Of a DNA stretch of 63,647 bases, positions 2,662 to 60,742 are shown piece by piece. The stretch is from a virus. Its lineage: Duplodnaviria > Caudoviricetes. The notes beneath the pieces are model-generated. The model made no database searches and had not been told where the DNA came from. It saw only the letters and a list, made by a program, of their open reading frames with translations. The position numbers and the translations under genes were made by a program. Each line of letters starts with the position of its first letter. Position 1 is the first letter of the stretch. The DNA lies in the IMG/VR virus record IMGVR_UViG_3300032080_000005, positions 1 through 63,647 of that record, one strand, 5' to 3'.

Positions 2662-3243
2662 ATGTTTCATCGAGTAGGCGTCATCCTAGCAGTCCTGATC
2701 CTGGTGGCCTTCTACGCCATATCTGTTGGCGAACTTGCGGCCAAGCCGGTCCCCGAGCGCTGTACCACGGCTGCCTTCCAGTCGTTCGCGGCCGACGTGT
2801 GGGATGCGCGCTGGCAGCGCGGTGCCCCCGCCCCGGCGGCCATCCGCGCCAAGCGGAAGCGCGTCGCGTGTGCCCCGGTCGCCCATCGTCGGGCCATGAT
2901 CCGCATCTGGGATCGGGAGCGCGACCACTACTACAGCGTGCGCCGCACGAAGCTCTGGCAGGCGCGCGTCACTCCCTATCCCGGCGGCGGCCGTCTGTGG
3001 GCGATCCCCTACTACATCGTTGCCTGCGAGTCGGGAGGCCGCGCCAACTCTCCGGCCGCCCCCAATGGCGCCTACTCGCTGCTGACCGATCCCCTCCAGG
3101 GAGTTCCGACGTGGGAGACTTGGCGGCCGGATTGGGCGGATGGCTATGCGGCGCCGTATCAGGCGCCGAAGCGCGCCCAGGACATCGCCGCCCATCGGCT
3201 GTGGGTCGCCTACGGCACGGAACCGTGGGTAGAGTGCGCATAA
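2662..3243 (+). CDS. secreted Rpf-like lytic transglycosylase
   Basis: Signal/TM N-terminus; IVACESGG, TW, QDIAAHRLW..G.EPW.C match the Rpf/transglycosylase domain; AAGGAGG RBS. Confidence 0.8.
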   Translation: MFHRVGVILAVLILVAFYAISVGELAAKPVPERCTTAAFQSFAADVWDARWQRGAPAPAAIRAKRKRVACAPVAHRRAMIRIWDRERDHYYSVRRTKLWQARVTPYPGGGRLWAIPYYIVACESGGRANSPAAPNGAYSLLTDPLQGVPTWETWRPDWADGYAAPYQAPKRAQDIAAHRLWVAYGTEPWVECA

Positions 3244-3286: not shown

Positions 3287-3339
3287 CCCACAACCCCACG
3301 CCGTTGTAGGGCCGGGTCACAACGGCGTGGGGTTGTGGG
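3287..3339. repeat. perfect 21-bp inverted repeat with 11-nt loop
   Basis: CCCACAACCCCACGCCGTTGT (3287-3307) / ACAACGGCGTGGGGTTGTGGG (3319-3339). Confidence 0.9.
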
Positions 3340-3371: not shown

Positions 3372-3400
3372 TTGAGTGTTGCCATGCTCGGTAGTATAGT
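3372..3400 (+). promoter_or_regulatory. promoter of TIGR-Tas-like locus
   Basis: TTGAGT-N17-TATAGT; overlapping TTGCC-N8-TAGTAT. Confidence 0.6.
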
Positions 3401-3441
3401 GGGCTTGGTTATCAGCCGTTTGAGGGGGACTCCCTCATCAT

Positions 3442-3495
3442 ATGTCAAGCCGCCATATCGCACCCGACATCCATTGACAGGGCGCGGCTTGACAT
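3442..3495 (+). ncRNA. tigRNA-like guide unit 1
   Basis: 11-bp stem ATGTCAAGCCG/CGGCTTGACAT enclosing CCA-TATCGCACC-CG-ACAT-CCA-TTGACAGGG-CG. Confidence 0.85.
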
Positions 3496-3517
3496 GCGCT
3501 ATACATTGGTTTTGAGA

Positions 3518-3559
3518 GGGCGCCACACTTCAAACGAAGCCCAACACGCTGTCGCGTCC
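3518..3559 (+). ncRNA. tigRNA-like guide unit 2
   Basis: Stem GGGCG/CGTCC enclosing CCA-CACTTCAAA-CG-AAGC-CCA-ACACGCTGT-CG. Confidence 0.8.
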
Positions 3560-3578
3560 CACAACGAAAGGAAATCAC

Positions 3579-4517
3579 ATGTCAATTTCAGAATTTACTC
3601 CGGCCGAGAATCCCCCGGTAACCAAAGGCGCGGCGCCGGACGACGATGTAGCGGCTGCCATCCAACGTCCGGTTCCCACCGCGCTCGCGCAACCGCTGCA
3701 TCGTCAAATCTTCTTGGACACCCATCCCGGCAGTCCGTGGGATTGCTATTTCTGCGGCGGTGCGGTCGAGGAGCTTCACGTCCATCATCGTGATGGCGAC
3801 CATGACAACAACGCCCCGGACAACCTTGTGGCGACGCATGGCGACTGCCACGCGCATCATCACCGCTCCGGGCTGGAATCATTCGAGCGGCCGCCTGCGG
3901 CAAGTCGGCTTCGGATCGCGGCCGGTAGCCTCGATGACATCGAAGGGCTGCGGAAGTCCGTGGCGAATCAGCGTCGGGGACTAGTGGCACATCAGCTACT
4001 TGACGCGAAAGCGGAAAAGCTGATTGATGCTCAGCTAGAGCACATCAAAGCAATGGAGCGGGCGGCGACGCTGGCACTCAAACACGCGGTGCGCGAGCAC
4101 CCGCTGGCGGACTGGATTAAATCCACGCATGGGATCAGCGAAAAGGGTGTCGGCCGCCTTCTTGCTGCCATTGGCGAGCCAGCCTACAATGCCGCCGAGG
4201 ATCGCCCACGGCGTGGTCCCGCAGAGCTGTGGGCCTACTGCGGCTATGCGCCAGGGCAGAAGCGGCGGCGTGGACAGAAGTCGAACTGGAATGCGGAGGC
4301 CAAAATGCGCGCCTACGTTGTCGCCGAGACGGTGGTCAAGGTCGGTGGCCCATACCGCGAAGTCTACGATCAGGCGCGTGCTTCGTGGGCTGATCGCGAC
4401 ACGAGTGACGGCCACAAGCACAACCACGCGCTGCGGCTCGTTGCCAAGGCGATTCTTCGCGACATCTTCGTGCGGTCCATTGAAGTGCCGACACCCAGGA
4501 GTCATGCGGCCGTATGA
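3579..4517 (+). CDS. TasH-like RNA-guided nuclease (HNH + coiled coil + Nop/IS110 C-terminal-like domain)
   Basis: HNH motif CYFC..HVHHRDGDHDNNAPDNL..H..CH; then HPLADWIKSTHGISEKGVGRLLAAIG, ELWAYCGY, WN...K, PYREVYD, HNHALRLVAKAILRD; no DEDD RuvC domain; flanked by dual-spacer units. Confidence 0.85.
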   Translation: MSISEFTPAENPPVTKGAAPDDDVAAAIQRPVPTALAQPLHRQIFLDTHPGSPWDCYFCGGAVEELHVHHRDGDHDNNAPDNLVATHGDCHAHHHRSGLESFERPPAASRLRIAAGSLDDIEGLRKSVANQRRGLVAHQLLDAKAEKLIDAQLEHIKAMERAATLALKHAVREHPLADWIKSTHGISEKGVGRLLAAIGEPAYNAAEDRPRRGPAELWAYCGYAPGQKRRRGQKSNWNAEAKMRAYVVAETVVKVGGPYREVYDQARASWADRDTSDGHKHNHALRLVAKAILRDIFVRSIEVPTPRSHAAV

Positions 4518-4518
4518 A
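4467..4518 (+). ncRNA. tigRNA-like guide unit 3 (overlaps 3' end of the CDS)
   Basis: Stem TTCGTGCGGT/GCCGTATGAA (with G-U pairs) enclosing CCA-TTGAAGTGC-CG-ACAC-CCA-GGAGTCATG-CG. Confidence 0.8.
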
Positions 4519-4521
4519 CTT

Positions 4522-4575
4522 GCTCCCGCCCACCAAATACCCCGCGTGCTCCTTCCCTCGCCCGTGGGCGGGAGC
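4522..4575 (+). ncRNA. tigRNA-like guide unit 4
   Basis: Perfect 11-bp stem GCTCCCGCCCA/TGGGCGGGAGC enclosing CCA-AATACCCCG-CG-TGCT-CCT-TCCCTCGCC-CG. Confidence 0.8.
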
Positions 4576-4610
4576 TTGATCGGTTTTGACGATCATGGTA
4601 GGCTGGTTAC

Positions 4611-4665
4611 GTGATCGGTAGGCCATTCCAGCTTCGCATCCCATTGACTCGGCGCCGCCGGTCAT
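4611..4665 (+). ncRNA. tigRNA-like guide unit 5
   Basis: Stem GTGATCGGTAGG/CCGCCGGTCAT enclosing CCA-TTCCAGCTT-CG-CATC-CCA-TTGACTCGG-CG. Confidence 0.82.
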
Positions 4666-4686
4666 TCAAACTTCAGAGGAGGACTT

Positions 4687-22676: not shown

Positions 22677-24008
22677 ATGTACATGATGACCACGCCGTAT
22701 CGAGACTTGACGATCTTTGGAGAGGCCGACGACAACACGGTCGAGCAGATGAACAACTGCCTCGATGTGCAGTCCGGCTCTAAAGGTGTTCTTTGCGCGG
22801 ACAACCATTTGGGCTACGCGCAGCCGGTCGGTGGGGTCGTTGCGTACAGAAACCGCATCAGCGTCAGCGGTGTGGGGTACGACATCGGCTGCGGCAACAA
22901 GGCCGTGAAAACCAACCTGAAGGCGGCCGACGTGGACATCGCCGCCATCATGGACGAGATTGAGCGGCGCATCGCCTTCGGCATCGGGCCGAACCCCGGC
23001 GAGAAGGCGCCCGACCATCCGGTTCTCGACTCCATCCGCGATGCGGACTTCGCACCGCAGCGCGCGCTGCTCGACAAGGCAGCCAACCAGCTCGGAACGG
23101 TCGGCGGCGGGAACCACTACGTGGACCTGTTCGAAGACGAGGATGGCTGGCTTTGGATCGGCGTCCACTTCGGCAGCCGCGGGTTCGGGCACACGACCGC
23201 CAACGGCTTCATGTGGATGTCGCGTGGCAAACCGTTCCAGACGAAGGCAGAGTTCAAGGAGGACTTGATGGCGGACCCCATCACCTTCCGTACGGACTCC
23301 GCCGAGGGCGAAGGCTACATCGCCGCAATGCAGCTCGCGGGAGAATACGCCTACGCTGGCCGCGATGTGGTCGTGGACCGCGTCCTGGAGATTCTGGGCG
23401 CGGAGGCTGTCTGGGGCGTCCACAACCACCACAACTACGCTTGGGCCGAGGAGCACTTCGGCGAGAGCTGGCACGTCGTCCGCAAGGGCGCGACCCCCGC
23501 GTGGCCGGGCCAGTACGGCTTCGTTGGTTCCACGATGGGCGAGAACTCCGTCATCCTGCGCGGCGCGGAGGATCAGGCGGGAAAGACGCTCGCCTACCAG
23601 GAGGCCGCGCTGTACTCGACGGTCCACGGCGCTGGCCGCGCGATGTCGCGTAGCCGGGCGGCCGGGAAGCAGAAGAAGCGCTGGACCTGCAACAACCGTG
23701 ACTGCGACTGGTTCCAGCCGCCGCATACGCACAAGCCGGAAGACGAGAAATGCCCGAAGTGCGGACATCCCAAACTCTCGAAGCAGTGGGTTCAGATGGA
23801 GCAGGGCGAGATTGACTGGACCGTCGAACGCAACTTCGTGCGCAACAACGGCGTGGAGCTACGGGGCGCGGGCGCCGAGGAGGCACCGTTGGCGTACAAG
23901 CGCCTGCCGAAGGTTCTGGAGGCGATGCACGACACCATCGAAGTCGTCCACACGCTGCGCCCGGTCGGCGTGGCGATGGCGCCGAACGGGGTGCCTGCCG
24001 ATGACTGA
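22677..24008 (+). CDS. rtcB: RtcB 3'-phosphate RNA ligase with inserted zinc ribbon
   Basis: ADNHLGY..PVG, GYDIGCG, LGTVGGGNHY, HFGSRG, HNHHN, RKGAT, HGAGR, EEAP.AYK. Confidence 0.95.
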   Translation: MYMMTTPYRDLTIFGEADDNTVEQMNNCLDVQSGSKGVLCADNHLGYAQPVGGVVAYRNRISVSGVGYDIGCGNKAVKTNLKAADVDIAAIMDEIERRIAFGIGPNPGEKAPDHPVLDSIRDADFAPQRALLDKAANQLGTVGGGNHYVDLFEDEDGWLWIGVHFGSRGFGHTTANGFMWMSRGKPFQTKAEFKEDLMADPITFRTDSAEGEGYIAAMQLAGEYAYAGRDVVVDRVLEILGAEAVWGVHNHHNYAWAEEHFGESWHVVRKGATPAWPGQYGFVGSTMGENSVILRGAEDQAGKTLAYQEAALYSTVHGAGRAMSRSRAAGKQKKRWTCNNRDCDWFQPPHTHKPEDEKCPKCGHPKLSKQWVQMEQGEIDWTVERNFVRNNGVELRGAGAEEAPLAYKRLPKVLEAMHDTIEVVHTLRPVGVAMAPNGVPADD

Positions 24009-24885
24009 TTTCAAGCCGATGTTGGCGCACTCAAAGTCGCCCGACCCGGAATCACTTGCCTACCCGGTGCTGGTGCAGCCCAAGCTGGATGGCATCCGGG
24101 CCGTCGTGCGGGGCGGCCGCTTGCTCTCGCGGACCCTGAAGTCAATCCCCAACGCCTCGATCCGCGCGGTGCTGGAGGACGCCGCCTACGAGGGACTGGA
24201 CGGCGAGTTGATTGTCGGCGACCCCACCGCGGACGACTGCTACCGGCGGACTTGCTCGTTCGTGATGGCGGAAGACAAGACTGACGAGCCGTGGACGTTC
24301 TACGTGTTCGACAAGCACAACTCCGCCGCAGCCGTTGAGGACCGCATCGCGTCCCTGGTGGCCTTTGGGCGTGTGGTGCCGGTGACGACCATGTCCGCCG
24401 GAGGCGCCGACGAACTGGCAGAGCTGGAGGCACAGTACCTCGCGGCCGGGTTCGAGGGCGGCATCATTCGCACGCTCGGCAGCGCCTACAAGTTCGGGCG
24501 CTCCGGCAAAAAAGGACCGCTGCTGAAGCTGAAGCGCTACATCGACTACGAGGCCGAGGTCGTGGGGGTTGTCGAGGAGCTGCACAACGGCAACGAGGCG
24601 CGCACGAACGAGCTTGGCCGCACTGAGCGGTCGTCCCACGCCGAGAACAAGACGGGCAAGGGAACGCTGGGCGCGCTGATCGTTCGGGCACTCAACGGCC
24701 CGCACGAGGGCGTTGAGTTCAAAGTCGGGACCGGCTTCACGGCCTCCCAGCGGGAGGAGTTGTGGGACGACCACGCGACCCTCATAGGCTACGTCGTCAA
24801 GATCAAGTCGTTTCCGGTCGGAACGAAAGACCGGCCGCGGCATCCGGTCTGGTTGGGCTGGCGCGACCTGGAGGTAGACGGCTGA
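24001..24885 (+). CDS. ATP-dependent DNA ligase
   Basis: QPKLDGIR, LDGEL, VFD, FEG, LLKLK, OB-fold KVGTGFT, RHPV. Confidence 0.93.
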   Translation: MTDFKPMLAHSKSPDPESLAYPVLVQPKLDGIRAVVRGGRLLSRTLKSIPNASIRAVLEDAAYEGLDGELIVGDPTADDCYRRTCSFVMAEDKTDEPWTFYVFDKHNSAAAVEDRIASLVAFGRVVPVTTMSAGGADELAELEAQYLAAGFEGGIIRTLGSAYKFGRSGKKGPLLKLKRYIDYEAEVVGVVEELHNGNEARTNELGRTERSSHAENKTGKGTLGALIVRALNGPHEGVEFKVGTGFTASQREELWDDHATLIGYVVKIKSFPVGTKDRPRHPVWLGWRDLEVDG

Positions 24886-35678: not shown

Positions 35679-36979
35679 TACAACCACGCGCTTTTAGAAG
35701 TTATAACGAACCCCGCCGCCGGGGTTGCTAAAGAGGAACTCGTTAAGCGAATGGCGTTCGGGCCAGGTACGAGTTCCCACCAGTCTGATGCAGTGAACGA
35801 CAATGCGCTATATTTACTCACGCCTGCTTCATCTTTCACAGTTTTATTGAGAAAATCAATGGTCCAAAATTTACCAGCCGCAATCGTTCCAGTGAAGTTC
35901 AGTTTCTTCCCAGTCGTTATATTTTCAATTACAGGATTGACAAGTTCACCAGAAATTTTTATGCTAGGAAACGTATCTACCGTACCTTTATTTTCGATGA
36001 TCAAATCTGGAACTGAATACCAGACATACGTATCCATGTAATCAACTTTTAGCGTGCCGCCGCTGCTCCCGGCGAATACAGCCAACCGAACCCCAAACTG
36101 TGCATGTTTAACATCAGAAACCGTTAGCGTGGTTCCCCAAAGAGAGGTCGAAAACCCGTAGCTCTTAGTTACCTCAGCTTCGCCCCATTCTTCGGCGCTT
36201 TTTTTATTTTCGCCTACAGCTACACCAGCCTTCTCTAGTTTAACTTCAGTGTCTTTCGGGCCAAAGCCTCCAAAAAAATATCCCGAACGCTCGATATGCG
36301 CTTCGACGCCTAAAATCGTAGCGTTTGATGGAATACTTGAATGCGGGGTATTCACCTTAATTACATTAGTGTTTAATTCAGCAGCAACAGCATTTTCCGC
36401 GCGCGTATTATCGCTGATTTTCACATTGTTTATATTCGTCCACGGCTCGGCGCCGCCCTTGTCTTCGACCGTGGCTGGCGCAGCAATTGAACGCGCATTA
36501 CTAGCTCCATTAGATAGTTCAATCGTAGTGCCGTATATACGTGGATCAGCCGACACCATCGCAGCCTGAAAGTCCTTCACGAACCCTTTGGTTATACGTA
36601 GCGGCTGCTGGCGGCGAAGCTGAAGTTCAACTTCTTCAACTGCGCCCGTTGGTTTCCATTTAAGCGTTGCATTACCGCGCATAGCATTCGTTGCCCGCAT
36701 CAATTTTTCGATGCGTTCAGCGCGCACCGTCTCCGTGGACGCGATAATCGTCCCCTGAAGAACCACCGGCCGGCGGCCGTAGTAGAAATTGCCATGAATG
36801 CCACCGTCGTCTTCCGTGCGATCTTGCGCATCCTCACGCACATCTGGTGAATCAAGGCCAGAGCTTTCAGGACTGAGTACGCCAACGAAGTTAGGATCAG
36901 CCGAATCGTTGAACACTACGATAGTGCCGTCTGGTCCCGTGAGGGTATACTTTGCGCCCCATTCGACTCCGAGTGACAT
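35678..36979 (-). CDS. distal tail protein (Dit) with inserted beta-rich domain
   Basis: Follows TMP; N- and C-terminal Dit-like segments (ADPRIYG; N.G....P; L.PG.N.I) around a lower-GC insert. Confidence 0.8.
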   Translation of the reverse strand: MSLGVEWGAKYTLTGPDGTIVVFNDSADPNFVGVLSPESSGLDSPDVREDAQDRTEDDGGIHGNFYYGRRPVVLQGTIIASTETVRAERIEKLMRATNAMRGNATLKWKPTGAVEEVELQLRRQQPLRITKGFVKDFQAAMVSADPRIYGTTIELSNGASNARSIAAPATVEDKGGAEPWTNINNVKISDNTRAENAVAAELNTNVIKVNTPHSSIPSNATILGVEAHIERSGYFFGGFGPKDTEVKLEKAGVAVGENKKSAEEWGEAEVTKSYGFSTSLWGTTLTVSDVKHAQFGVRLAVFAGSSGGTLKVDYMDTYVWYSVPDLIIENKGTVDTFPSIKISGELVNPVIENITTGKKLNFTGTIAAGKFWTIDFLNKTVKDEAGVSKYSALSFTASDWWELVPGPNAIRLTSSSLATPAAGFVITSKSAWL

Positions 36980-39900
36980 TAGAGATTGCTCAACTCCCAC
37001 TCCTGCTGCTTCGTCCACGTCATCGGATCAGGCGGCGGCGCCGCAAAGTTGTTCACGACCTGAATGTTAGCGCCTTCAGACCCACTTGACGAACTGCCAT
37101 TCAACATCGGCGTCGCCGCCGCGAGAGCCGTCATTCCGCCAGGTGCGTACGACGGCTCTCCACCGGAAGCTCCGATAGCGGCCGCCCCAGGGCGTGCCGT
37201 AGGCGTTAACTGCCCGATGATGTTCGATGCGAACTGCTGGTAGAGCTGTTCACGCGCTTCGTTGTAGGAGGCAGTCTGCTCACCAATCGTGCCCTTGCCA
37301 CCGTTCCCGGCCGCTTCTTCACGTAGCTGTTTGAGCTGTTCCCCTTTCTCAACATCATCAGATGGCGAAGGCGTACTCAATGCAGCGTTGTATTCCCGTT
37401 CGGCAACTTCAACCATCTGTTTACGTGCCGCTTCTTCAGCGCCGGCATTGCCTTCCAGTTCGGCACGCACAAGGGCAGCTTTCGCATATTCCATTTCCGG
37501 CGTCGTTTCAGCGCCTTCGGCATAGGGAGCATCAACAACGCCAGTTTCTACATCCGTGATGTACTGAAGTTCTTCTTCGGAGCGTTCCGCGCTCACTTTC
37601 GCTTCATTCATCTTGCGAGCGCCAGTAATTTCCGAAAGCTCCTGCTTCGCTTCCGCACGAATCGCAATTAGACGAGCGCGTTCTTTTTCCTTCTTACGCT
37701 GTTCTGCCTCCATTTTGGTGATGGACTGCTCATGCGGGCGCTTCCGCTTCGCAAATGCAGCATCGGACTCATTTTTGCCCTGCTTCAGGTTGCCGAGCTT
37801 CGCTTTCTCTTTACTGATTCCCCGACCGAGATTGCGAATGGCTTTCTGAGAGAATTCACCTTTACCATCAACCAAGCCATGGATACGGCCGAGTTCTTTA
37901 TTGACCGTCGTCCGAATCTCCGGCACAAGCGTCGTGAGTTTGCGGTACTCAGCCGCCTGTTCGGAGAGCAATCCGCGGAGGCGGCCGAATTCCCACTGCT
38001 CCATACGGCCAGCGCGAATCTCGGATTCGTTGTGGTTGAAGACCTGACCGTAGACTTCTTCCTTGATACCAGCAGCCGTTTCGGCAGCGTTGTAGGCCGC
38101 GACCGGACCCCATTTTTCGACTTTCGCGATCTTATGGGGGCGGTTCTTCGGTTTCGGCGGGTGGTTCGCCAGCGTCTCCGCCGTCGATTTGCCGGTGCGC
38201 GCTGCTTTGCCGGATTTTTTGGCTTTCCCTCTCCCCTTTTTGTACGCGGGAATCAGCTCGTAACCAAACTCACCGGCCGCATCCTCCAGGTACCGTTCGT
38301 TGTCCGACTGGTAGGCCGGATTGGTCGCGATGACATACTCCGGGTGGCTCGGCGCCTGCTCGCCGACCAGCATCGTCGGCCGAGTGACGCGGAAGCTCGG
38401 GCCGGAGCGCTGCGTGACTGCCTTTTCGTTTGCGCGCTGGATTTCGCGGTCATTGATGCCGCCCGTCGCGAAATTGGAATAGTACATCGCGGCCGGGCCG
38501 CCGGAGAAGCCGCCGGACTTGCTCGTGACGACGTTGACGTGGACCGTCTTGTCCTGGAGGCCCGCCAGCGCACCCTGCACGGCGCTGATGGCGCCGAGGG
38601 CCTGCGCGTTGCTGGCCGTGATGTTGATTTTCGGCTTCGCGCGACCGGCAGCGTCCGCGTTCTGTTTAGCGGTCTTCGCCTTCGCGCTCGCGTCGTCAAT
38701 GGCGGTGATGCGCGCCTGGTACTTTTTCGATGCGACGCCCTGAATGCGGTGGTGGAAGTTACTTGCCGTCTGTCCTGACTTGTCTTCGGCTTTCAGTTCC
38801 GCTTTGTACTGCTTCGTGACGAGCCGCGTGAGGTTGGCTTTGAGACGCTGGATCGCCTGCTCGGCGTTCTCCGAGCGTGCCAGGATGTGAACAGTGCTTT
38901 TGGTTCCAGCAATACGCTGCGAGAGTGCCCCAAGGCGTTTAAGTTTCGACTGCGCCTGCGAGTCATTCGCCCCAACTTTGATGGTGGCACGAGCAGATTC
39001 GACGCGGTTGGTCTGTTTCTGGAGGCGCTGAAGTTTAGCGATGGTCTGGTCCGCACCCTGCGATTTGACTGCGACCGATTTGACCTGCCCACCGCGGCCG
39101 AGTTGCGTGAGTTTGTTGCCCAAGTCCGTGACACGCTGGACATCCTTCGGATCAACGAATTTTCCAATCTTCCGCGTGGCGGTGATGCCGATGGTGTCTG
39201 CCAATTTACGCAGACCGTTCGCAGCCTGCTGGCTAATGGGCGCTAGTCCTTTGAGCTGCCGTTCGTACGGGATCGCGGTGACGGCCTCCTGCTTCTGCGC
39301 GGCGGCAACGTCACGGGAGGCGGTCGCCAGGTCGCGTTTGGCGCGAGCCAGTTCCTTGTACTTGTCCTCGTCGGCCCACCCTTCGGAGTCCGAGCCAACT
39401 ATGCCTTTGCGCGCCCACTTCTGGTTCTTGATGGCGAGTTCGGCGGCGCGAATCTCCTCCTTGGCGGTAGCGACGCGCTGTTTGGCACCCGCGACGAGCT
39501 GGCGCTGATCCTGAATCTGCTGCCGGTTGACCGTCGCACGGCGGTAGGAGGTCGCAGTCTGGCGCGATTCCGCCGCCGCCAGGTCTTCGACAGCAGTCGT
39601 AACCTTTTCCGCAGGAGCGTTTTCCTTCTGGAGCTTAATCAGCCGGGCGCGGGCCGAGGCGGCAGCGTTGTTTGCTTTGATGCTGCGGTGTTGGGAGGCA
39701 ATGAACTGGTCAACGTGACTCGCCGATTCGGTCATCGAGGTTTTGATCTGCTGGCCTGCGGCGCGGAACTCCTCGCGAATGTCCTCCACCGTGCGACGGT
39801 CTTCCTTCAGCAAAATGCCGAGGCCAATTAGCCCAGCAGTAACGCCGACTGGAATCAGAACCGCAGGGCTCAAGGCGGCACCCAATACTCCTGCACTTCC

Positions 39901-42066
39901 AGCCAAGCCGAAGGAAGCAGCCTCAGCAGCGCCCGCGGCGCCACCAAATAACGCGATCTGTTTCGCAGCGCGCGCGGCATCGTCTCCAGCAGAAGCAACA
40001 GTCGTCATCTTCTTACCACGGCCGAACCCGCTGAACATCCCAGCGAAATCCCCGGCGCGGGCGGCTGCGGCCGCAGCAGCGGAGGCGGCAGCGAAGCCGT
40101 AGAGTGCTTTCGAGGCGGCGCTGACGCCGGAGGCGAATGCCATCGCCTTGCTTCCGACCCAGAGGCCCGCGAGGGTGATACCGAGGGCCTGGAAAATCTG
40201 CTTGATGCCGACGAGGTCGTTGGCCGTCTGCACGAAGTCGCCGATGAAGGTTGCGATCTTCAGTAGGCCGCTGGCAACCGGGGAGGTCGCGCGCGAGAAC
40301 TGAAACAGGAGCTGCGTCAGATGCCCCAGCGTGGACATGAAGTTCTTGCTCGTTTCCTCCGAGTCCTCGAAGAATTCGTTAAGGCCGCGTTTGCCCTCCG
40401 TCGTCTGCGTCCACTTGTCCCAGCGCTGGATGACGCCGTCGAGCGATTTGACGAGGTCGTTGCCCGAATCCGAGGAGGCATCGAACAGATGGACGAGGAA
40501 GGAGCCGGTGCTCTGCGACAGGTGGCCGAGGTCGCGCATCTGACCCACGAGTCCGCCCACGTCGCGCTCCAGCGCTTTGCCGCCGCCGACTGCGCTCTCC
40601 AGGTTGTCGGCCCAATCAGCGAAGCCATTGGAGAGGCCCGGCAGGAAGCTTGCGCCCGCAGCCGAGAGGCGGCCGAACATCGCGATGAGCGAGCCGAGGC
40701 CGTCCGTGAGGCCGGGGATCGACGCGCGGAAGTCGGACATGATGCTTTTGAGGACGCCCTGTGCCTCGCCGGAGCGCAGCGACTTCATCCAACCGGACCA
40801 CGCGCGCGAAGCAACCTGCGTGGTTTTCACCGATTCGCTGGCGAAGGCGGGCAGCAGCGTCTGGACCGTCTTCAGGCTTTCGCCGAAGGCATCGAAGGCG
40901 GCGGGCCGCGCGGCGGCCGTCAGCTCCTTCCAGCGGTCTTTGATGCCGCCGTAGGTCGTGAACGCCTCGCGCGCGCCCGCGCTGACGCCGTGAAGCTGGT
41001 GGTTGAGTTTTTCGGTGGCGGTGGCCGCCTCCGTGCTGCCTTTACCGTATTTCAGCTCGGCTTTGTGCAGCGCCTCCGAGGCGGCCGTGACTTCCTTGAA
41101 TTCCCCGATCATCGGGCCGACGATGAAGCCGACGCCCGCGGCGGAGAGGGCCAGGCCGGACAGCGCGCCCGCGCTGACCGTGGCGGCGCCAGCCAGGCCC
41201 TCGCCGAGGGTGCCGACCAGAGAGACGAGGCCGCCGCCCAGCTCGAAGATCAGCGGCCCGAGCAGGCCGAGGCCGACCCCCAGGCCCTTGATGGAGGTCG
41301 TGATGGGTCCGATGCGGATGGACGTGTCGCCGAGGCGGTCCAGCCAGCGACCAAGGATCGTGTTGTTCCGCTGGATCGCGGGGTCGAGGTCGGCGACCGA
41401 GCCGCCCAATTTCTCGATGCGGTGCTTGACGTAGTCGGCTTCCGTGCCGACGCGCTCCAAGGCACGGCCCTCCTTGGTCGCCACCGCGACGGAGCGCGAG
41501 GAGAAAATGCCGCGGGCAGACTTCTGGAGCGCGATCTGGCGGCCGCGAAGTTTCTCGTACTCGGCCGAGAGCTTCGCCAGCTCGGCGCGCTCTTTGATGG
41601 CACGCGTGACGGCCTTGTCGCGTTCGATAGAGAGCCGCTTCTCGGCTTTCGCCTGCTGGAGGGCGGCGCGTTCGCTGAGGCCGCGCTCTTTCGCCAGTAG
41701 CCGCTCCTGGGCGGCAGCCGCGCGCAGCTCTTTCGTGTCGATGCGAATCGTTGCACGCTGCTTGTCGAGGTCTTTGAGCTGCGCTTTCGCGGTAGCGATC
41801 TTCTCGTCAAAGTGTTTCTTGGCAAGGTCAACGGTGGCGCGCGCACGCCGCGTGTTCAGGTAGTCAAGTTCGTCCTTCGCCTCCTTTACCTTGCGGTCAA
41901 ACGCAGCGGATTTAAGGTTAAGCTGGGCCGCCGCTTTCTGGCGGCCCAGCTCATCAAAGTCACGATCAACTTTTGCCTTGAAGGCGGCCAGCTCGGCTTC
42001 GCCGGGGGCAGCGTTGACGTGAATGTCAACGTGCGCGCTTCCTACCTGCTCTCCCGGACCAGCCAT
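36979..42066 (-). CDS. tape measure protein
   Basis: About 1.7 kaa, Ala-rich helical with TM segments, after tail chaperones. Confidence 0.93.
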   Translation of the reverse strand: MAGPGEQVGSAHVDIHVNAAPGEAELAAFKAKVDRDFDELGRQKAAAQLNLKSAAFDRKVKEAKDELDYLNTRRARATVDLAKKHFDEKIATAKAQLKDLDKQRATIRIDTKELRAAAAQERLLAKERGLSERAALQQAKAEKRLSIERDKAVTRAIKERAELAKLSAEYEKLRGRQIALQKSARGIFSSRSVAVATKEGRALERVGTEADYVKHRIEKLGGSVADLDPAIQRNNTILGRWLDRLGDTSIRIGPITTSIKGLGVGLGLLGPLIFELGGGLVSLVGTLGEGLAGAATVSAGALSGLALSAAGVGFIVGPMIGEFKEVTAASEALHKAELKYGKGSTEAATATEKLNHQLHGVSAGAREAFTTYGGIKDRWKELTAAARPAAFDAFGESLKTVQTLLPAFASESVKTTQVASRAWSGWMKSLRSGEAQGVLKSIMSDFRASIPGLTDGLGSLIAMFGRLSAAGASFLPGLSNGFADWADNLESAVGGGKALERDVGGLVGQMRDLGHLSQSTGSFLVHLFDASSDSGNDLVKSLDGVIQRWDKWTQTTEGKRGLNEFFEDSEETSKNFMSTLGHLTQLLFQFSRATSPVASGLLKIATFIGDFVQTANDLVGIKQIFQALGITLAGLWVGSKAMAFASGVSAASKALYGFAAASAAAAAAARAGDFAGMFSGFGRGKKMTTVASAGDDAARAAKQIALFGGAAGAAEAASFGLAGSAGVLGAALSPAVLIPVGVTAGLIGLGILLKEDRRTVEDIREEFRAAGQQIKTSMTESASHVDQFIASQHRSIKANNAAASARARLIKLQKENAPAEKVTTAVEDLAAAESRQTATSYRRATVNRQQIQDQRQLVAGAKQRVATAKEEIRAAELAIKNQKWARKGIVGSDSEGWADEDKYKELARAKRDLATASRDVAAAQKQEAVTAIPYERQLKGLAPISQQAANGLRKLADTIGITATRKIGKFVDPKDVQRVTDLGNKLTQLGRGGQVKSVAVKSQGADQTIAKLQRLQKQTNRVESARATIKVGANDSQAQSKLKRLGALSQRIAGTKSTVHILARSENAEQAIQRLKANLTRLVTKQYKAELKAEDKSGQTASNFHHRIQGVASKKYQARITAIDDASAKAKTAKQNADAAGRAKPKINITASNAQALGAISAVQGALAGLQDKTVHVNVVTSKSGGFSGGPAAMYYSNFATGGINDREIQRANEKAVTQRSGPSFRVTRPTMLVGEQAPSHPEYVIATNPAYQSDNERYLEDAAGEFGYELIPAYKKGRGKAKKSGKAARTGKSTAETLANHPPKPKNRPHKIAKVEKWGPVAAYNAAETAAGIKEEVYGQVFNHNESEIRAGRMEQWEFGRLRGLLSEQAAEYRKLTTLVPEIRTTVNKELGRIHGLVDGKGEFSQKAIRNLGRGISKEKAKLGNLKQGKNESDAAFAKRKRPHEQSITKMEAEQRKKEKERARLIAIRAEAKQELSEITGARKMNEAKVSAERSEEELQYITDVETGVVDAPYAEGAETTPEMEYAKAALVRAELEGNAGAEEAARKQMVEVAEREYNAALSTPSPSDDVEKGEQLKQLREEAAGNGGKGTIGEQTASYNEAREQLYQQFASNIIGQLTPTARPGAAAIGASGGEPSYAPGGMTALAAATPMLNGSSSSGSEGANIQVVNNFAAPPPDPMTWTKQQEWELSNL

Positions 42067-42302
42067 TACCGACCACCCCCACCGTCGAGCAGACCGGACT
42101 CCTTCGCCCAATCTTTATGCGACTTCATCCAGTCCTGCCGCTCACGGTCTTCGTTCGCTTTCGTACGTTCGACCGCCGCCTTCGTGACCAGCGCCTCGAC
42201 CACGAGGAAATTCGTCACCTCGTCTTCGCTGAACTTAGGCAGGGGCATTCCAGACTCCTTACACGTCCAGAATATCCTCGTCGCCACCGTCGATTCCACG
42301 AA
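42066..42302 (-). CDS. tail assembly chaperone, frameshifted extension
   Basis: Overlapping +1 frame ending at TAATG with the TMP start; no clear RBS of its own. Confidence 0.65.
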   Translation of the reverse strand, partial: FVESTVATRIFWTCKESGMPLPKFSEDEVTNFLVVEALVTKAAVERTKANEDRERQDWMKSHKDWAKESGLLDGGGGR

Positions 42303-58693: not shown

Positions 58694-60742
58694 ATGATTC
58701 CAGAGCGAACCGGCGTAACCACTGTGAGCACCGTGCAAGGCGAGGACGTGAAAATGTCCATCGACCAGTCGGCGTTGGCCCACATCATGAACGTCTTGAC
58801 GGACCTGTACGCCGATCCCGAGTTGGCCTGCATCCGCGAGTACCTGACCAACGCGCTCGATTCACATATCGAGGCAGGCCAGACGCGGCCGGTTGAGATA
58901 ACCACGCCTACGGCTCTGCGGCCGCTGCTGACGATCCGGGATTACGGAGTCGGGCTAGACGCCGATGGCATCCGGGACATCTACTCCCGCTACGGCGCGA
59001 GCACGAAGCGCGAGACGAACGATGCGGTCGGAATGCTCGGCCTTGGCTGCAAGTCGGCGCTGTCCTACGTGGACCAGTTCACGCTCGCCGGAATCAAAAA
59101 CGGCCATCGCATCGTTGTGAGCATCGGCCGCGACGAAACCGGCGCGGGCACGATGACGGTCCTAGAGACTGAGGACGAATGCACCGAGCCGGATGGCGTC
59201 GAAATCTGCATCCCCACGGATGACGAGTACGCGCTGTCCCGCAAGGCTGCCGATTTCCTCTCCTATTGGGAACCGGGCCTGGCGCTGCTGAACGGCGCGG
59301 TGCCCGCCCCACTGGAGGGCTACGAAGTCGGCGACTACATCGTCGCCGACCGGAACCGCTCATACTCCGCGCTGGGGCGCTTCGACGGCCACCCGCTGAC
59401 TATCGTTATGGGGAACGTGAGCTATCCGCCGCCCGATGACTTCACTAGCGAGGTAGTGGACTCCCTGCCGGACTCTAAGCGACTCGTGGTCCGCGTCCCC
59501 ATCGGGGCGGTCCACTTCACGCCTTCGCGTGAGGGGTTGCAGGACTCCACCCGCACGCGGGAGGCCATCCACACGGCGCTGGAGGATTTCCAGGGCTTGG
59601 TCGCGACCGCCGTCACCGACGCCGTCACGAACGCGCCGGATCGACCGGCTGCCGCCAAAGCGCTGATCGAAGCTCGCGCGGCGTTCGGCAAAAAGAACAT
59701 TCCAGAGTTGAAGTGGGAAGGTGAGGAGATTCCGGTTGTCCTGTCGGCGGAAGACTTGGACCCGATCCCGCTGGGCGACGGCAAAGTGAAGGACGCCGCG
59801 CTCTGGAAATCGAAGTCACGCACTGGCGGCCAGCGTACCGCCGCAGGGCAAATCACCCTTGACGAGGCGGGCGAATGTCCCTGGATTCTCGGCTACAACA
59901 ATACGAAATGGTCGAAAACGCAGCGGACCAAGCTCGACCGCTACATGGAGCACCACAACCTGAGCGAAAACGCGAGCGAGGAGAATTATCTCGTCACGGA
60001 CGCGAAGGCTGTACCCCGGCCCGAATGGATCGACGGTGCGGTGCTCGCGGTGGACTGGCAGGACGTGAGGGCATGGAAAGATCCCGCGAAGGTACGCGCT
60101 GGCAGTAGCGGTGGCGGCATCAAGTACGCGGGCACCTACCCGACCTACACGAACGGGCGGCGCCTTCATGAGCACTTCCCCGCTGACAACCTGCCGAAGG
60201 TCGGGCGCAAGCTCTACTACGTCGTCATCCACGATAAATACGATTGGCGCGCTCATGAATGCGCCGACCTGCTGGCCGAAGACGCCTACGTTGTCTGTCT
60301 CACTGGATCGCGGGCGGCCAAGTTCAAACGGCTCTTTCCCCACGCGCGTCCGGCTATGGAGGCGGCCAAGCGCGCTGCGCAGGGCTGGTACAAATCCCTG
60401 AGCGACGATTCCCGGCTCGCTATCGCAATCGGCCCGGACCTGGGCGGCTCATACCCTGGCCCGTCTGCGCTCCCGGCTGACAAGGTAAACGATCCCGAGC
60501 TATCCAGACTCTGCGCCATCCGGCAGCTATGGGAGGGCGACACGCTGGAGGCGCGCTGGCGGGCACGCAAGGATTTCATTACGGTGCCAGAGGACTACAC
60601 GCCGGACATCGACCCGGCGACGGTCTGTGAGCGCTACCCCTTGATCGAGGAAATGTACTACGGTACGATAAACGGAAACCTTGACCACGCCGTACTTTAC
60701 GTCAATGCGGTCTACGCGGCCGCCAACAAAGGAGGTAAGTAA
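58694..60742 (+). CDS. rIIA: RIIA-like protein (GHKL ATPase N-terminus)
   Basis: LY.DP..ACIREYLTNALDSH, IRDYGVGL, YGASTK, GMLGLGCKS, FTPSREGL; adjacent to rIIB. Confidence 0.88.
   Translation: MIPERTGVTTVSTVQGEDVKMSIDQSALAHIMNVLTDLYADPELACIREYLTNALDSHIEAGQTRPVEITTPTALRPLLTIRDYGVGLDADGIRDIYSRYGASTKRETNDAVGMLGLGCKSALSYVDQFTLAGIKNGHRIVVSIGRDETGAGTMTVLETEDECTEPDGVEICIPTDDEYALSRKAADFLSYWEPGLALLNGAVPAPLEGYEVGDYIVADRNRSYSALGRFDGHPLTIVMGNVSYPPPDDFTSEVVDSLPDSKRLVVRVPIGAVHFTPSREGLQDSTRTREAIHTALEDFQGLVATAVTDAVTNAPDRPAAAKALIEARAAFGKKNIPELKWEGEEIPVVLSAEDLDPIPLGDGKVKDAALWKSKSRTGGQRTAAGQITLDEAGECPWILGYNNTKWSKTQRTKLDRYMEHHNLSENASEENYLVTDAKAVPRPEWIDGAVLAVDWQDVRAWKDPAKVRAGSSGGGIKYAGTYPTYTNGRRLHEHFPADNLPKVGRKLYYVVIHDKYDWRAHECADLLAEDAYVVCLTGSRAAKFKRLFPHARPAMEAAKRAAQGWYKSLSDDSRLAIAIGPDLGGSYPGPSALPADKVNDPELSRLCAIRQLWEGDTLEARWRARKDFITVPEDYTPDIDPATVCERYPLIEEMYYGTINGNLDHAVLYVNAVYAAANKGGK

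Follow-up and report, generated by a model that had tools for sequence, protein, structure and literature searches.

A phage tasH gene bounded by two of its own dual-spacer guide units, whose predicted target sites overlap by eight nucleotides

The virus represented by the IMG/VR virus record IMGVR_UViG_3300032080_000005 (Duplodnaviria; Caudoviricetes) carries, at positions 3518-4517 of the stretch of DNA analysed here (63,647 nucleotides (nt), positions 1 to 63,647 of that record, in the following called the window), a gene which is bordered on both sides by a short stem-loop unit with two spacers. This locus raises two questions, namely to which system it belongs, and whether the two units, whose predicted target sites overlap, are guides against one and the same stretch of foreign DNA. 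The first can be answered plainly: positions 3518-4517 contain tasH, from a stem-loop TIGR-TasH system of a phage, with one of the system's own guide units at either border. With regard to the second, the evidence is suggestive, as the overlap of 8 nt is improbable by chance yet not decisive.

The gene tasH corresponds to the open reading frame (ORF) 3579-4517 on the plus strand, which is flanked by guide units 2 and 3 and encodes a protein of 312 amino acids (P0001). An HNH domain (about residues 55-100), two long helices predicted to form a coiled coil (residues 107-137 and 143-172) and a Nop domain (about residues 175-302) follow one another in this protein, and this order equals that published for TasH, i.e. 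an N-terminal HNH domain, a central coiled coil and a C-terminal Nop domain (PMC13421893). Pfam HNH_3 matched residues 64-84 weakly and under the curated cut-off (E-value 8.6e-5); in addition, the N-terminus showed matches to seven PHROG HNH families. The residues C56, C59, H69, H70, N77, N78, H87, C90 and H91 were invariant in 13 relatives. At the N-terminus, a nuclease domain of the HNH type with its catalytic and zinc residues is predicted to be present and apparently intact.

The C-terminal part of P0001 matched PHROG 4285, which carries the label 'transposase' (E-value 1e-49). When solved structures were searched with phmmer, residues 156-302 matched the PDB entry 9mty (E-value 3e-15), and PDB entries of TasH (21kl, 9w04 and others) were found with an E-value of 3e-5. 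The entry 9MTY is described as the TaTasR ribonucleoprotein (Faure et al. 2025, PMC12045711). An AlphaFold model of P0001, built from an alignment of 43 sequences with a mean predicted local distance difference test score (pLDDT) of 82, showed a small N-terminal domain, the two long helices (pLDDT 95-98 in this monomer model) and a helical C-terminal domain. The best Foldseek matches of this model were, in this order, TIGR-TasR, TasH complexes and the IS110-family members ISCro4/IS621, with a probability of 1.0 for TasR and TasH. Sequence and model both point to the presence of a C-terminal Nop domain of the Tas type.

Among nucleases, the closest counterpart is SpTIGR-TasH of the Salicola phage CGphi29 (PDB 9W03, 9W04, 21KL; PMC13421893), which shares the predicted succession of HNH, coiled coil and Nop and the dual-spacer guide. 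Over the structural alignment, both proteins are 18-21% identical. SpTasH differs from the system described here in that it uses a dual-repeat array of 36-nt tigRNAs, which is self-processed through a Y/H loop, and forms heteroduplexes of 8 base pairs (bp).

The recombinases of the IS110/IS621 type, which use bridge RNAs, possess a related RNA-binding domain (Foldseek E-value 1e-4 to 6e-4), and their guide loops likewise read both DNA strands, with a left/right geometry that is the same as here. In contrast to the one bridge RNA with two loops, several guides with a single loop each are present here. The Pfam search of P0001 detected neither a DEDD/RuvC-like domain nor a Tnp domain with a catalytic serine, neither element ends nor a donor loop were identified at the locus, and the spacer pairs did not match the flanks of the gene, all matches in the window having at least three mismatches. 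Because of the HNH N-terminus, the missing DEDD and Tnp domains, the single-loop units and the lack of flank matches, an IS110-family bridge-RNA transposon was rejected.

All guide units follow one build: a stem arm, CCA, a first spacer of 9 nt (spacer A), a 9-nt loop which starts with CG and mostly ends with CCA, a second spacer of 9 nt (spacer B), CG and the second stem arm, the two arms being separated by exactly 30 nt. The motif CCA-N9-CG-N4-CCA-N9-CG occurred seven times in the 63.6-kilobase (kb) window, where 0.35 occurrences were expected, and 0 of 100 shuffles reached seven. Five of the seven matches lie on the plus strand at 3453-4654, and the remaining two on the minus strand (42450 and 50915) lack a flanking stem. 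Six guide units are obtained if unit 4, the loop of which ends with CCT, is added to the five plus-strand matches. The initial annotation had counted five units; those five are present, but a sixth at 3643-3704, seen by motif and stem, had been overlooked.

Unit 2 (3518-3559, plus strand like all the others) precedes the start codon of tasH by 26 nt and belongs to the 5' untranslated region, where it lies just before the ribosome-binding site. Its stem (3518-3523 / 3554-3559) comprises six pairs, one of them G-U, and encloses spacer A CACTTCAAA (3526-3534), the loop CGAAGCCCA (3535-3543) and spacer B ACACGCTGT (3544-3552). Unit 3 (4467-4518) covers the last 13 codons and the stop codon of tasH. 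It has a stem of 11 pairs (4467-4477 / 4508-4518; three G-U pairs; pair probabilities 0.69-0.98), spacer A TTGAAGTGC (4480-4488), the loop CGACACCCA (4489-4497) and spacer B GGAGTCATG (4498-4506). For both units, the spacers and loops at 3526-3552 and 4480-4506 are those which the initial annotation had given.

Upstream of unit 2, unit 1 (3441-3496) has the stem arms 3441-3453 / 3484-3496 (inverted repeat I8; pair probabilities 0.83-1.0), CCA at 3453-3455, spacer A TATCGCACC (3456-3464), the loop CGACATCCA (3465-3473), spacer B TTGACAGGG (3474-3482) and CG at 3483-3484. The additional unit at 3643-3704 lies within codons 23-42 of tasH and possesses the strongest stem of all six (3643-3658 / 3689-3704; 15 of 16 positions paired; -31.8 kcal/mol), with spacer A TCCAACGTC (3661-3669), the loop CGGTTCCCA (3670-3678) and spacer B CCGCGCTCG (3679-3687); it coincides with a segment of low confidence in the N-terminal part of the P0001 model (residues 17-38). 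Downstream of the gene, unit 4 (4522-4575) shows a perfect 12-bp stem (4522-4533 / 4564-4575; inverted repeat I11; pair probabilities 0.96-1.0), spacer A AATACCCCG (4536-4544), the variant loop CGTGCTCCT (4545-4553) and spacer B TCCCTCGCC (4554-4562). Unit 5 (4620-4657) is weak and has only about three contiguous stem pairs; CCA (4623-4625) is followed by spacer A TTCCAGCTT (4626-4634), the loop CGCATCCCA (4635-4643), spacer B TTGACTCGG (4644-4652) and CG (4653-4654). These are predicted to be repeated dual-spacer units with a box C before and a box D after each spacer and with palindromic stems.

In published stem-loop arrays, the loop is described as being mostly 9 nt long, and the coding sequence of tas may itself contain units, at the 5' or the 3' end, where it encodes disordered parts (Xu et al. 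2026 preprint). With its closest relatives, the stem-loop TIGR-Tas systems of PlTasA, BlTasA, CsTasR and PateTasR (Faure et al. 2025, PMC12045711; Xu et al.), the locus shares the position of the units upstream and downstream of tas and inside its ends, in disordered parts, and also the CUU at the stem base, which was read from the sequence in units 3 and 4. Two differences are apparent. The experimentally characterised stem-loop systems lack an active nuclease, whereas an apparently intact N-terminal HNH domain is predicted here, and while the published box C is CCA, as in this array, box D is UG in ParTasR and CG here. As stem-loop-binding TasH proteins are called rare and are placed at two isolated positions of the tree by Xu et al. 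in the text of their preprint, the locus belongs, by its sequence, to a kind which is known but rare, the stem-loop TasH systems.

Six related loci were obtained from IMG/VR, with Nop domains 34-46% identical to that of P0001. Units of the same build were found in five of them, two of which are identical to each other, with 3, 5, 8 and 13 units on the gene strand; the sixth locus showed no units with the strict detector. The four distinct related arrays comprise 29 units with differing spacers. Across 34 units, the spacer columns contained at most 0.25 bit. A C before CA was seen in all units but one (33 of 34), and at the loop end C-C-A the three positions were conserved in 30, 34 and 28 units, so that CCA precedes spacer B in 28-34 of 34; the detector had demanded CA, CG and C, and evidence for conservation comes from the other positions only.

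A further indication was obtained from 12 close relatives (68-88% identical), in which the C-terminal tail is hypervariable after DIFxRS except for one proline. Within this tail (residues 301-312 of P0001, compared with P0002-P0012), the conserved proline corresponds to the CCC of the loop. Hypervariable tails with a constant proline are what an embedded guide with changing spacers predicts, and judged from these alignments the tail variation is a protein-level trace of spacer change in the embedded guide. DNA of the close relatives P0002-P0012 was not found: no loci were detected in viral_contigs or metagenome_contigs by alignment A1, none were detected by P0001 alone, and a search of phage DNA gave no match. 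A relative's contig of 41,633 nt, aligned over 3688-4670, differs within unit 3 at 4494 (C>T), 4502 (T>A) and 4513 (T>C), among the 40 of 179 differences listed; in the four runs compared, no diverged one covered the region of unit 2.

Homologues of P0001 were present in 91 GenBank phage records, i.e. 83 of Mycobacterium, 5 of Gordonia and one each of Arthrobacter, Rhodococcus and Microcystis phages; some of them, e.g. gp72 of phage SarFire, are annotated as transposase. The host is probably an actinobacterium, because such homologues occur in Mycobacterium and Gordonia phages and because a provirus of the terminase family discussed below resembles Gordonia phages. Gene 72 of SarFire (Mycobacterium phage, cluster A, NC_022324.1) encodes a Tas homologue of 235 amino acids without HNH domain, and the unannotated gap of 336 nt 5' of this gene (L104 2399-2734) contains at least two clear dual-spacer stem-loop units, to which inspection by eye adds two others whose loops are longer. 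Two genes downstream of gp72 lies gp70, a separate HNH gene.

The initial annotation had proposed, by analogy, that a target is obtained when the reverse complement of spacer B is appended to spacer A, and this rule agrees with the published TIGR-Tas structures. For SpTasH it is described that the spacer base furthest 5' is paired to DNA position +1, which adjoins the flank with negative numbers, that an unpaired segment (positions 16 to 14) runs 3' from the other flanking duplex, and that each strand passes through 5'-flank, displaced half, paired half and flank-3' (PMC13421893). Guan et al. located the adenine of box C, together with the first guide base that is paired, at the junction where the DNA unwinds, and according to Faure et al. 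(PMC12045711) the cuts leave 3' overhangs. From strand polarity, the position of the junction and the 3' overhangs it follows that one strand reads spacer A and then the reverse complement of spacer B. The published wording of the cut (3' of the nucleotide complementary to base 5; 8-nt 3' overhang) amounts to 10 nt by our own count under the accepted geometry; the geometry used here rests on strand polarity and the structural descriptions, not on the number of overhanging nucleotides. TasR accepts gaps of 1-2 bp between the half-sites.

Under this rule, the targets of units 2 and 3 are two sequences of 18 nt (18-mers), which overlap end-to-end by 8 nt (CACTTCAA) without conflict and form a composite of 28 nt (28-mer), as had been noted in the initial annotation. 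The sites are offset by 10 bp. Eight nt of spacer 2A (CACTTCAAA) recur, offset by one, when spacer 3A is reverse-complemented (GCACTTCAA), and this inverted match is confined to the spacers and stops before box C and the loop. A homing cassette with terminal inverted repeats was dropped because the 8-nt inverted match ends at the spacers. By our own reading, the arithmetic of the composite is consistent only if spacer A is joined to the reverse complement of spacer B, and the opposite geometry leads to a clash at both flanking bases. That the overlap lends support to the rule can fairly be said, but the argument is weak, since the rule is independently established.

In simulations with 10 random 9-mers, 0.5-0.7% of the sets contained a pair which shared a run of at least 8 nt in one or the other orientation, and with 12 spacers 1.0% did. 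A harsher, empirical control was provided by 68 spacers of five arrays. It showed one 8-nt run among 1728 pairs between arrays, which implies about 0.03 expected in the 45 spacer pairs of the array in the window. Among the 550 pairs within arrays there were one run of 8 nt (2A/3A), two of 7 nt and nine of 6 nt, and runs of at least 6 nt were thus more common within arrays (12 of 550) than between arrays (10 of 1728), a difference that may be enlarged by a common base composition. Chance is probably not the cause of the overlap; however, it is a single event with P of about 0.005-0.03, and it was picked after the fact.

Two shorter matches involve the spacers of unit 2. In L046/L047, the unit at 2381 is the closest one to the tas gene; its spacer A (CACTTCGAG) has CACTTC in common with spacer 2A, which likewise belongs to the unit nearest to the gene start in the window, and spacer 2B shares CGCTGT with a neighbouring L046 unit; by a rough estimate, about 0.16 rather than two such 6-nt matches are expected.

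We consider it the likeliest explanation, if somewhat short of an even chance, that the overlap reflects two guides against one foreign locus which is as yet unsampled. The anatomy of the locus, the family of the protein, the overlap and the outcome of the database searches are shown; expression and processing of the units, cleavage and the common target are steps that we infer. As in the published relatives, each unit would be excised as a tigRNA and held by a TasH dimer; the two 9-nt spacers would pair with opposite strands of one 18-bp site, and the two HNH domains would cut both DNA strands. Guides 2 and 3 would then be aimed from opposite sides, at sites offset by 10 bp, at one short stretch of foreign DNA, which may belong to a rival phage or another mobile element of an actinobacterial host. 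For the half addressed by unit 3, the best candidate at present is the conserved coding stretch L-E-S-W-H-F-N upstream of Walker B in a large-terminase gene.

This candidate was obtained from two exact matches of the unit 3 18-mer in viral_contigs, both on contigs of uncultured phages with a high guanine-plus-cytosine (GC) content. The matches are located inside ORFs of 508 and 493 amino acids, which are 71% identical to each other (72% at the DNA level) and represent large terminases by distant tblastn matches to annotated genes. At this site, the 18-mer reads (L)-E-S-W-H-F-N and directly precedes the Walker B stretch VLVFDEMH. In 37 terminase relatives, the site agreed with the 18-mer in 18 of 18 positions in two, in 17 in 13, in 16 in 17, in 15 in two and in 10 in three cases, and the mismatches fell on silent codon positions. 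The phages of this terminase family are temperate and of high GC content (0.62-0.67) with a size of 31-39 kb; three of the five fetched records are classed as provirus, and structural DNA of one of these proviruses matched Gordonia phages only (15 of 15 records). The large terminase of the phage itself (29215-30783, minus strand; PHROG 2) belongs to another family and is not matched.

By count, the match is not significant. A control 15-mer of the same composition (the unit 3 18-mer backwards, shortened) gave 36 matches, 10 of them in contigs with a GC content of at least 0.58, which corresponds to a chance expectation of about 0.56 matches per 18-mer and of about 0.16 in those high-GC contigs. 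The site is nevertheless a reasonable lead, but no more, since it lies in the stretch that is best conserved within a gene essential to these high-GC temperate phages. That it is in fact the target of unit 3 appears possible, though on the whole unlikely.

That the 28-mer does not occur in the window was confirmed for up to three mismatches. Beyond this, several results weigh against a common target, beginning with the chance expectation of the terminase match just given. The exact search for the 28-mer which the initial annotation had suggested gave no copy in genome_contigs (185,579 species) or in metagenome_contigs, and it is excluded from viral_contigs by implication, because the unit 2 18-mer had no exact match there. 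The unit 2 18-mer was also missing from its own virus record at up to three mismatches. In genome_contigs it had four matches, in assemblies of Flavobacteriales, Chthoniobacter, Burkholderiaceae and Lachnospiraceae; the 10 nt upstream of them agreed with the extension by unit 3 in 4, 3, 2 and 0 positions, and these are chance matches. Because TasR accepts gaps of 1-2 bp, the gapped form of unit 2 was scanned as well, which yielded three loci (two distinct sequences) with 4, 4 and 2 of 10 extension positions. The stem of unit 2 forms in a local fold, but its probability is 0 when the entire 1.2-kb transcript is folded. With a 1-bp gap, unit 2 matched 13-14 of 18 positions at the terminase site, which is background; the best matches of the 34 units at terminase loci were 13-16 of 18. 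The other guides of the array gave nothing over background at 38 terminase-family loci, and none exceeded the shuffled null of 13-15 of 18 in five whole terminase-family records. Finally, the peptide H-F-K-T-A-C encoded by the composite occurred in 0 of the 141 aligned terminase representatives (of 150 listed), none of which has a lysine after H-F; by this, the composite as a terminase variant was ruled out. The terminase lead and the 28-mer composite are in tension.

Several of these results are what is expected if units 2 and 3 are functional, have unrelated targets and share 8 complementary nucleotides by chance among the 45-66 spacer pairs, in which case unit 3 may hit the terminase alone. 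The only place with an exact match of unit 3 offers no fit for unit 2, and the composite occurs exactly in none of the three collections. An 8-nt run was also found in 1 of the 1728 pairs between arrays, which likewise weakens the reading as two guides against one locus, and the overlap was selected post hoc by a reader seeking patterns. On the other hand, the simulated probability of such a coincidence is 0.005-0.01, the match is restricted to the spacers and spares box C and the loop, the overlap lies in the sole register which yields a conflict-free composite, and longer runs are commoner within than between arrays, with the reservation on base composition made above. Coincidence has to be regarded as a serious alternative, which we would place at roughly a third of the overall weight. 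The 8-nt run between arrays is a reverse-complement match (AGATCGGC) of spacer B of unit 6 in L044 and spacer B of unit 3 in L045 and represents either chance or a shared target.

It is also conceivable, but rather unlikely, that unit 2 is decayed or non-functional and its spacer A is free of target selection, so that the overlap would be uninformative on targeting. The short stem of six pairs, with a probability of 0 in the whole-transcript fold in comparison to 0.69-1.0 for units 1, 3 and 4, would fit such a decay, as would the position 26 nt before the start codon, where the constraints of a leader apply. Unit 2 has kept all conserved positions, however (CCA, CG, CCCA, CG, the 30-nt interior and the 9-nt spacers). 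A stem of six pairs also occurs in one of the eight units of the related array L044, and binding of the protein stabilises such stems in published structures.

Very unlikely is a pairing of spacers 2A and 3A with each other (8 bp) within the tasH transcript, which would close the messenger RNA or couple processing to translation as an autoregulation. Both spacers lie on one predicted transcript, with unit 2 before the ribosome-binding site and unit 3 over the stop codon, and the duplex has an energy of -9.3 kcal/mol; furthermore, a link between tigRNA maturation and Tas translation is raised in the literature for intragenic units. However, the spacers are 950 nt apart, all eight pairs had a probability of 0.0 in the partition function of 3400-4600, and the unit 3 stem is strongly favoured (0.69-0.98), though that of unit 2 is at 0.0.

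The initial annotation had gone further and read the 28-mer as the start of a foreign gene, with GGAG as Shine-Dalgarno sequence followed by ATG GCA CTT CAA AAC AGC GTG (MALQNSV). The usual distance between a Shine-Dalgarno sequence and the start codon is about 5-10 nt; here it is 2 nt. An ATG is present and its frame is open, as are, by our own reading, four of the six frames of the 28-mer. GGAGTCATG does serve as a real start context once in the phage, at 2656-2664, where it forms the ribosome site and start of an Rpf-like ORF (2662-3243), but the following 9 nt agree with the other half-site in only 4 of 9 positions, and one recurrence of a 9-mer is expected by chance in 64 kb. In both exact matches of unit 3, the ATG is out of frame (TC-ATG-G, Ser-Trp) inside the terminase ORF of 493-508 amino acids, and in the phage GGAGTCATG is constrained by the TasH codons R-S-H-(A), which it also encodes. 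The reading as a gene start is without support, because no exact copy occurs in the three collections and the sole exact match of the half with GGAGTCATG lies inside a gene, and we regard it as highly improbable.

Self-targeting of the phage was rejected as well. In the window, the 18-bp targets predicted for all six units, under either geometry and allowing gaps of 0-2, were not found with fewer than three mismatches, and GGAGTCATG at 2656 is a half-site only. The target of unit 5 matches 14 of 18 positions inside tasH at 4000; the differences are not synonymous, and the match is at background level.

With regard to the surroundings, a promoter-like site (TTGAGT-17-TATAGT, 3372-3400, plus strand) is located upstream of unit 1, which was predicted by consensus match alone (1 found, 0.6 expected). 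A perfect hairpin of 21 bp with an 11-nt loop at 3287-3339, between the Rpf-like gene and the TIGR locus, is probably a terminator which insulates the locus. Further genes of the window encode a tape measure protein of 1710 amino acids (36979-42111, minus strand), an RIIA-like protein (58694-60742, plus strand) and an ATP-dependent DNA ligase (23365-24885, plus strand). The completeness of the virus record is 54% by CheckV. Two contigs of 151 nt from the freshwater metagenome run X2 of another study are identical to the window at 3430-3540 and 3566-3716; an identical or near-identical phage is therefore present outside the soil sample which carries the whole stretch.

In CRISPR arrays, several spacers may target one region of an invader. 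The idea of two guides from neighbouring or overlapping foreign stretches is the same here; different from CRISPR arrays, TIGR systems have no known adaptation machinery, their spacers of 9 + 9 nt address opposite strands, and natural protospacers have yet to be established. In the text of Faure et al. (PMC12045711) and in the discussion of the preprint of Xu et al. (2026), both the natural targets of TIGR-Tas and the acquisition of spacers are called unknown; the short TIGR spacers yield many false matches. A literature search, covering texts without figures, supplements and TIGRSafari, found no paper linking tigRNA and terminase, and natural targets were treated only by Faure et al. and Xu et al.

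Within the rare stem-loop TasH type, the locus is an example that is resolved well, as guide units are written into its own gene near the start and at the end, and it adds one statistically weak candidate target in a terminase gene. If overlapping guides are real and recurrent, they would provide a longer searchable target and a hint at the mechanism of acquisition. Since homologues occur in cultivated Mycobacterium and Gordonia phages, these questions may be tested in a laboratory host. At its boldest, the finding would mean that two guides taken from overlapping stretches of one invader, on opposite strands, are a first footprint of spacer gain, and that the Walker-B-proximal terminase site of a rival temperate actinophage is the first natural target of a nuclease-active TIGR-TasH; we consider this combination improbable. 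If it were true, overlapping guides would serve as a 28-nt probe and offer a way round the problem of false positives with 18 nt, and TIGR-TasH would be used in a warfare of phage against phage at an escape-proof site.

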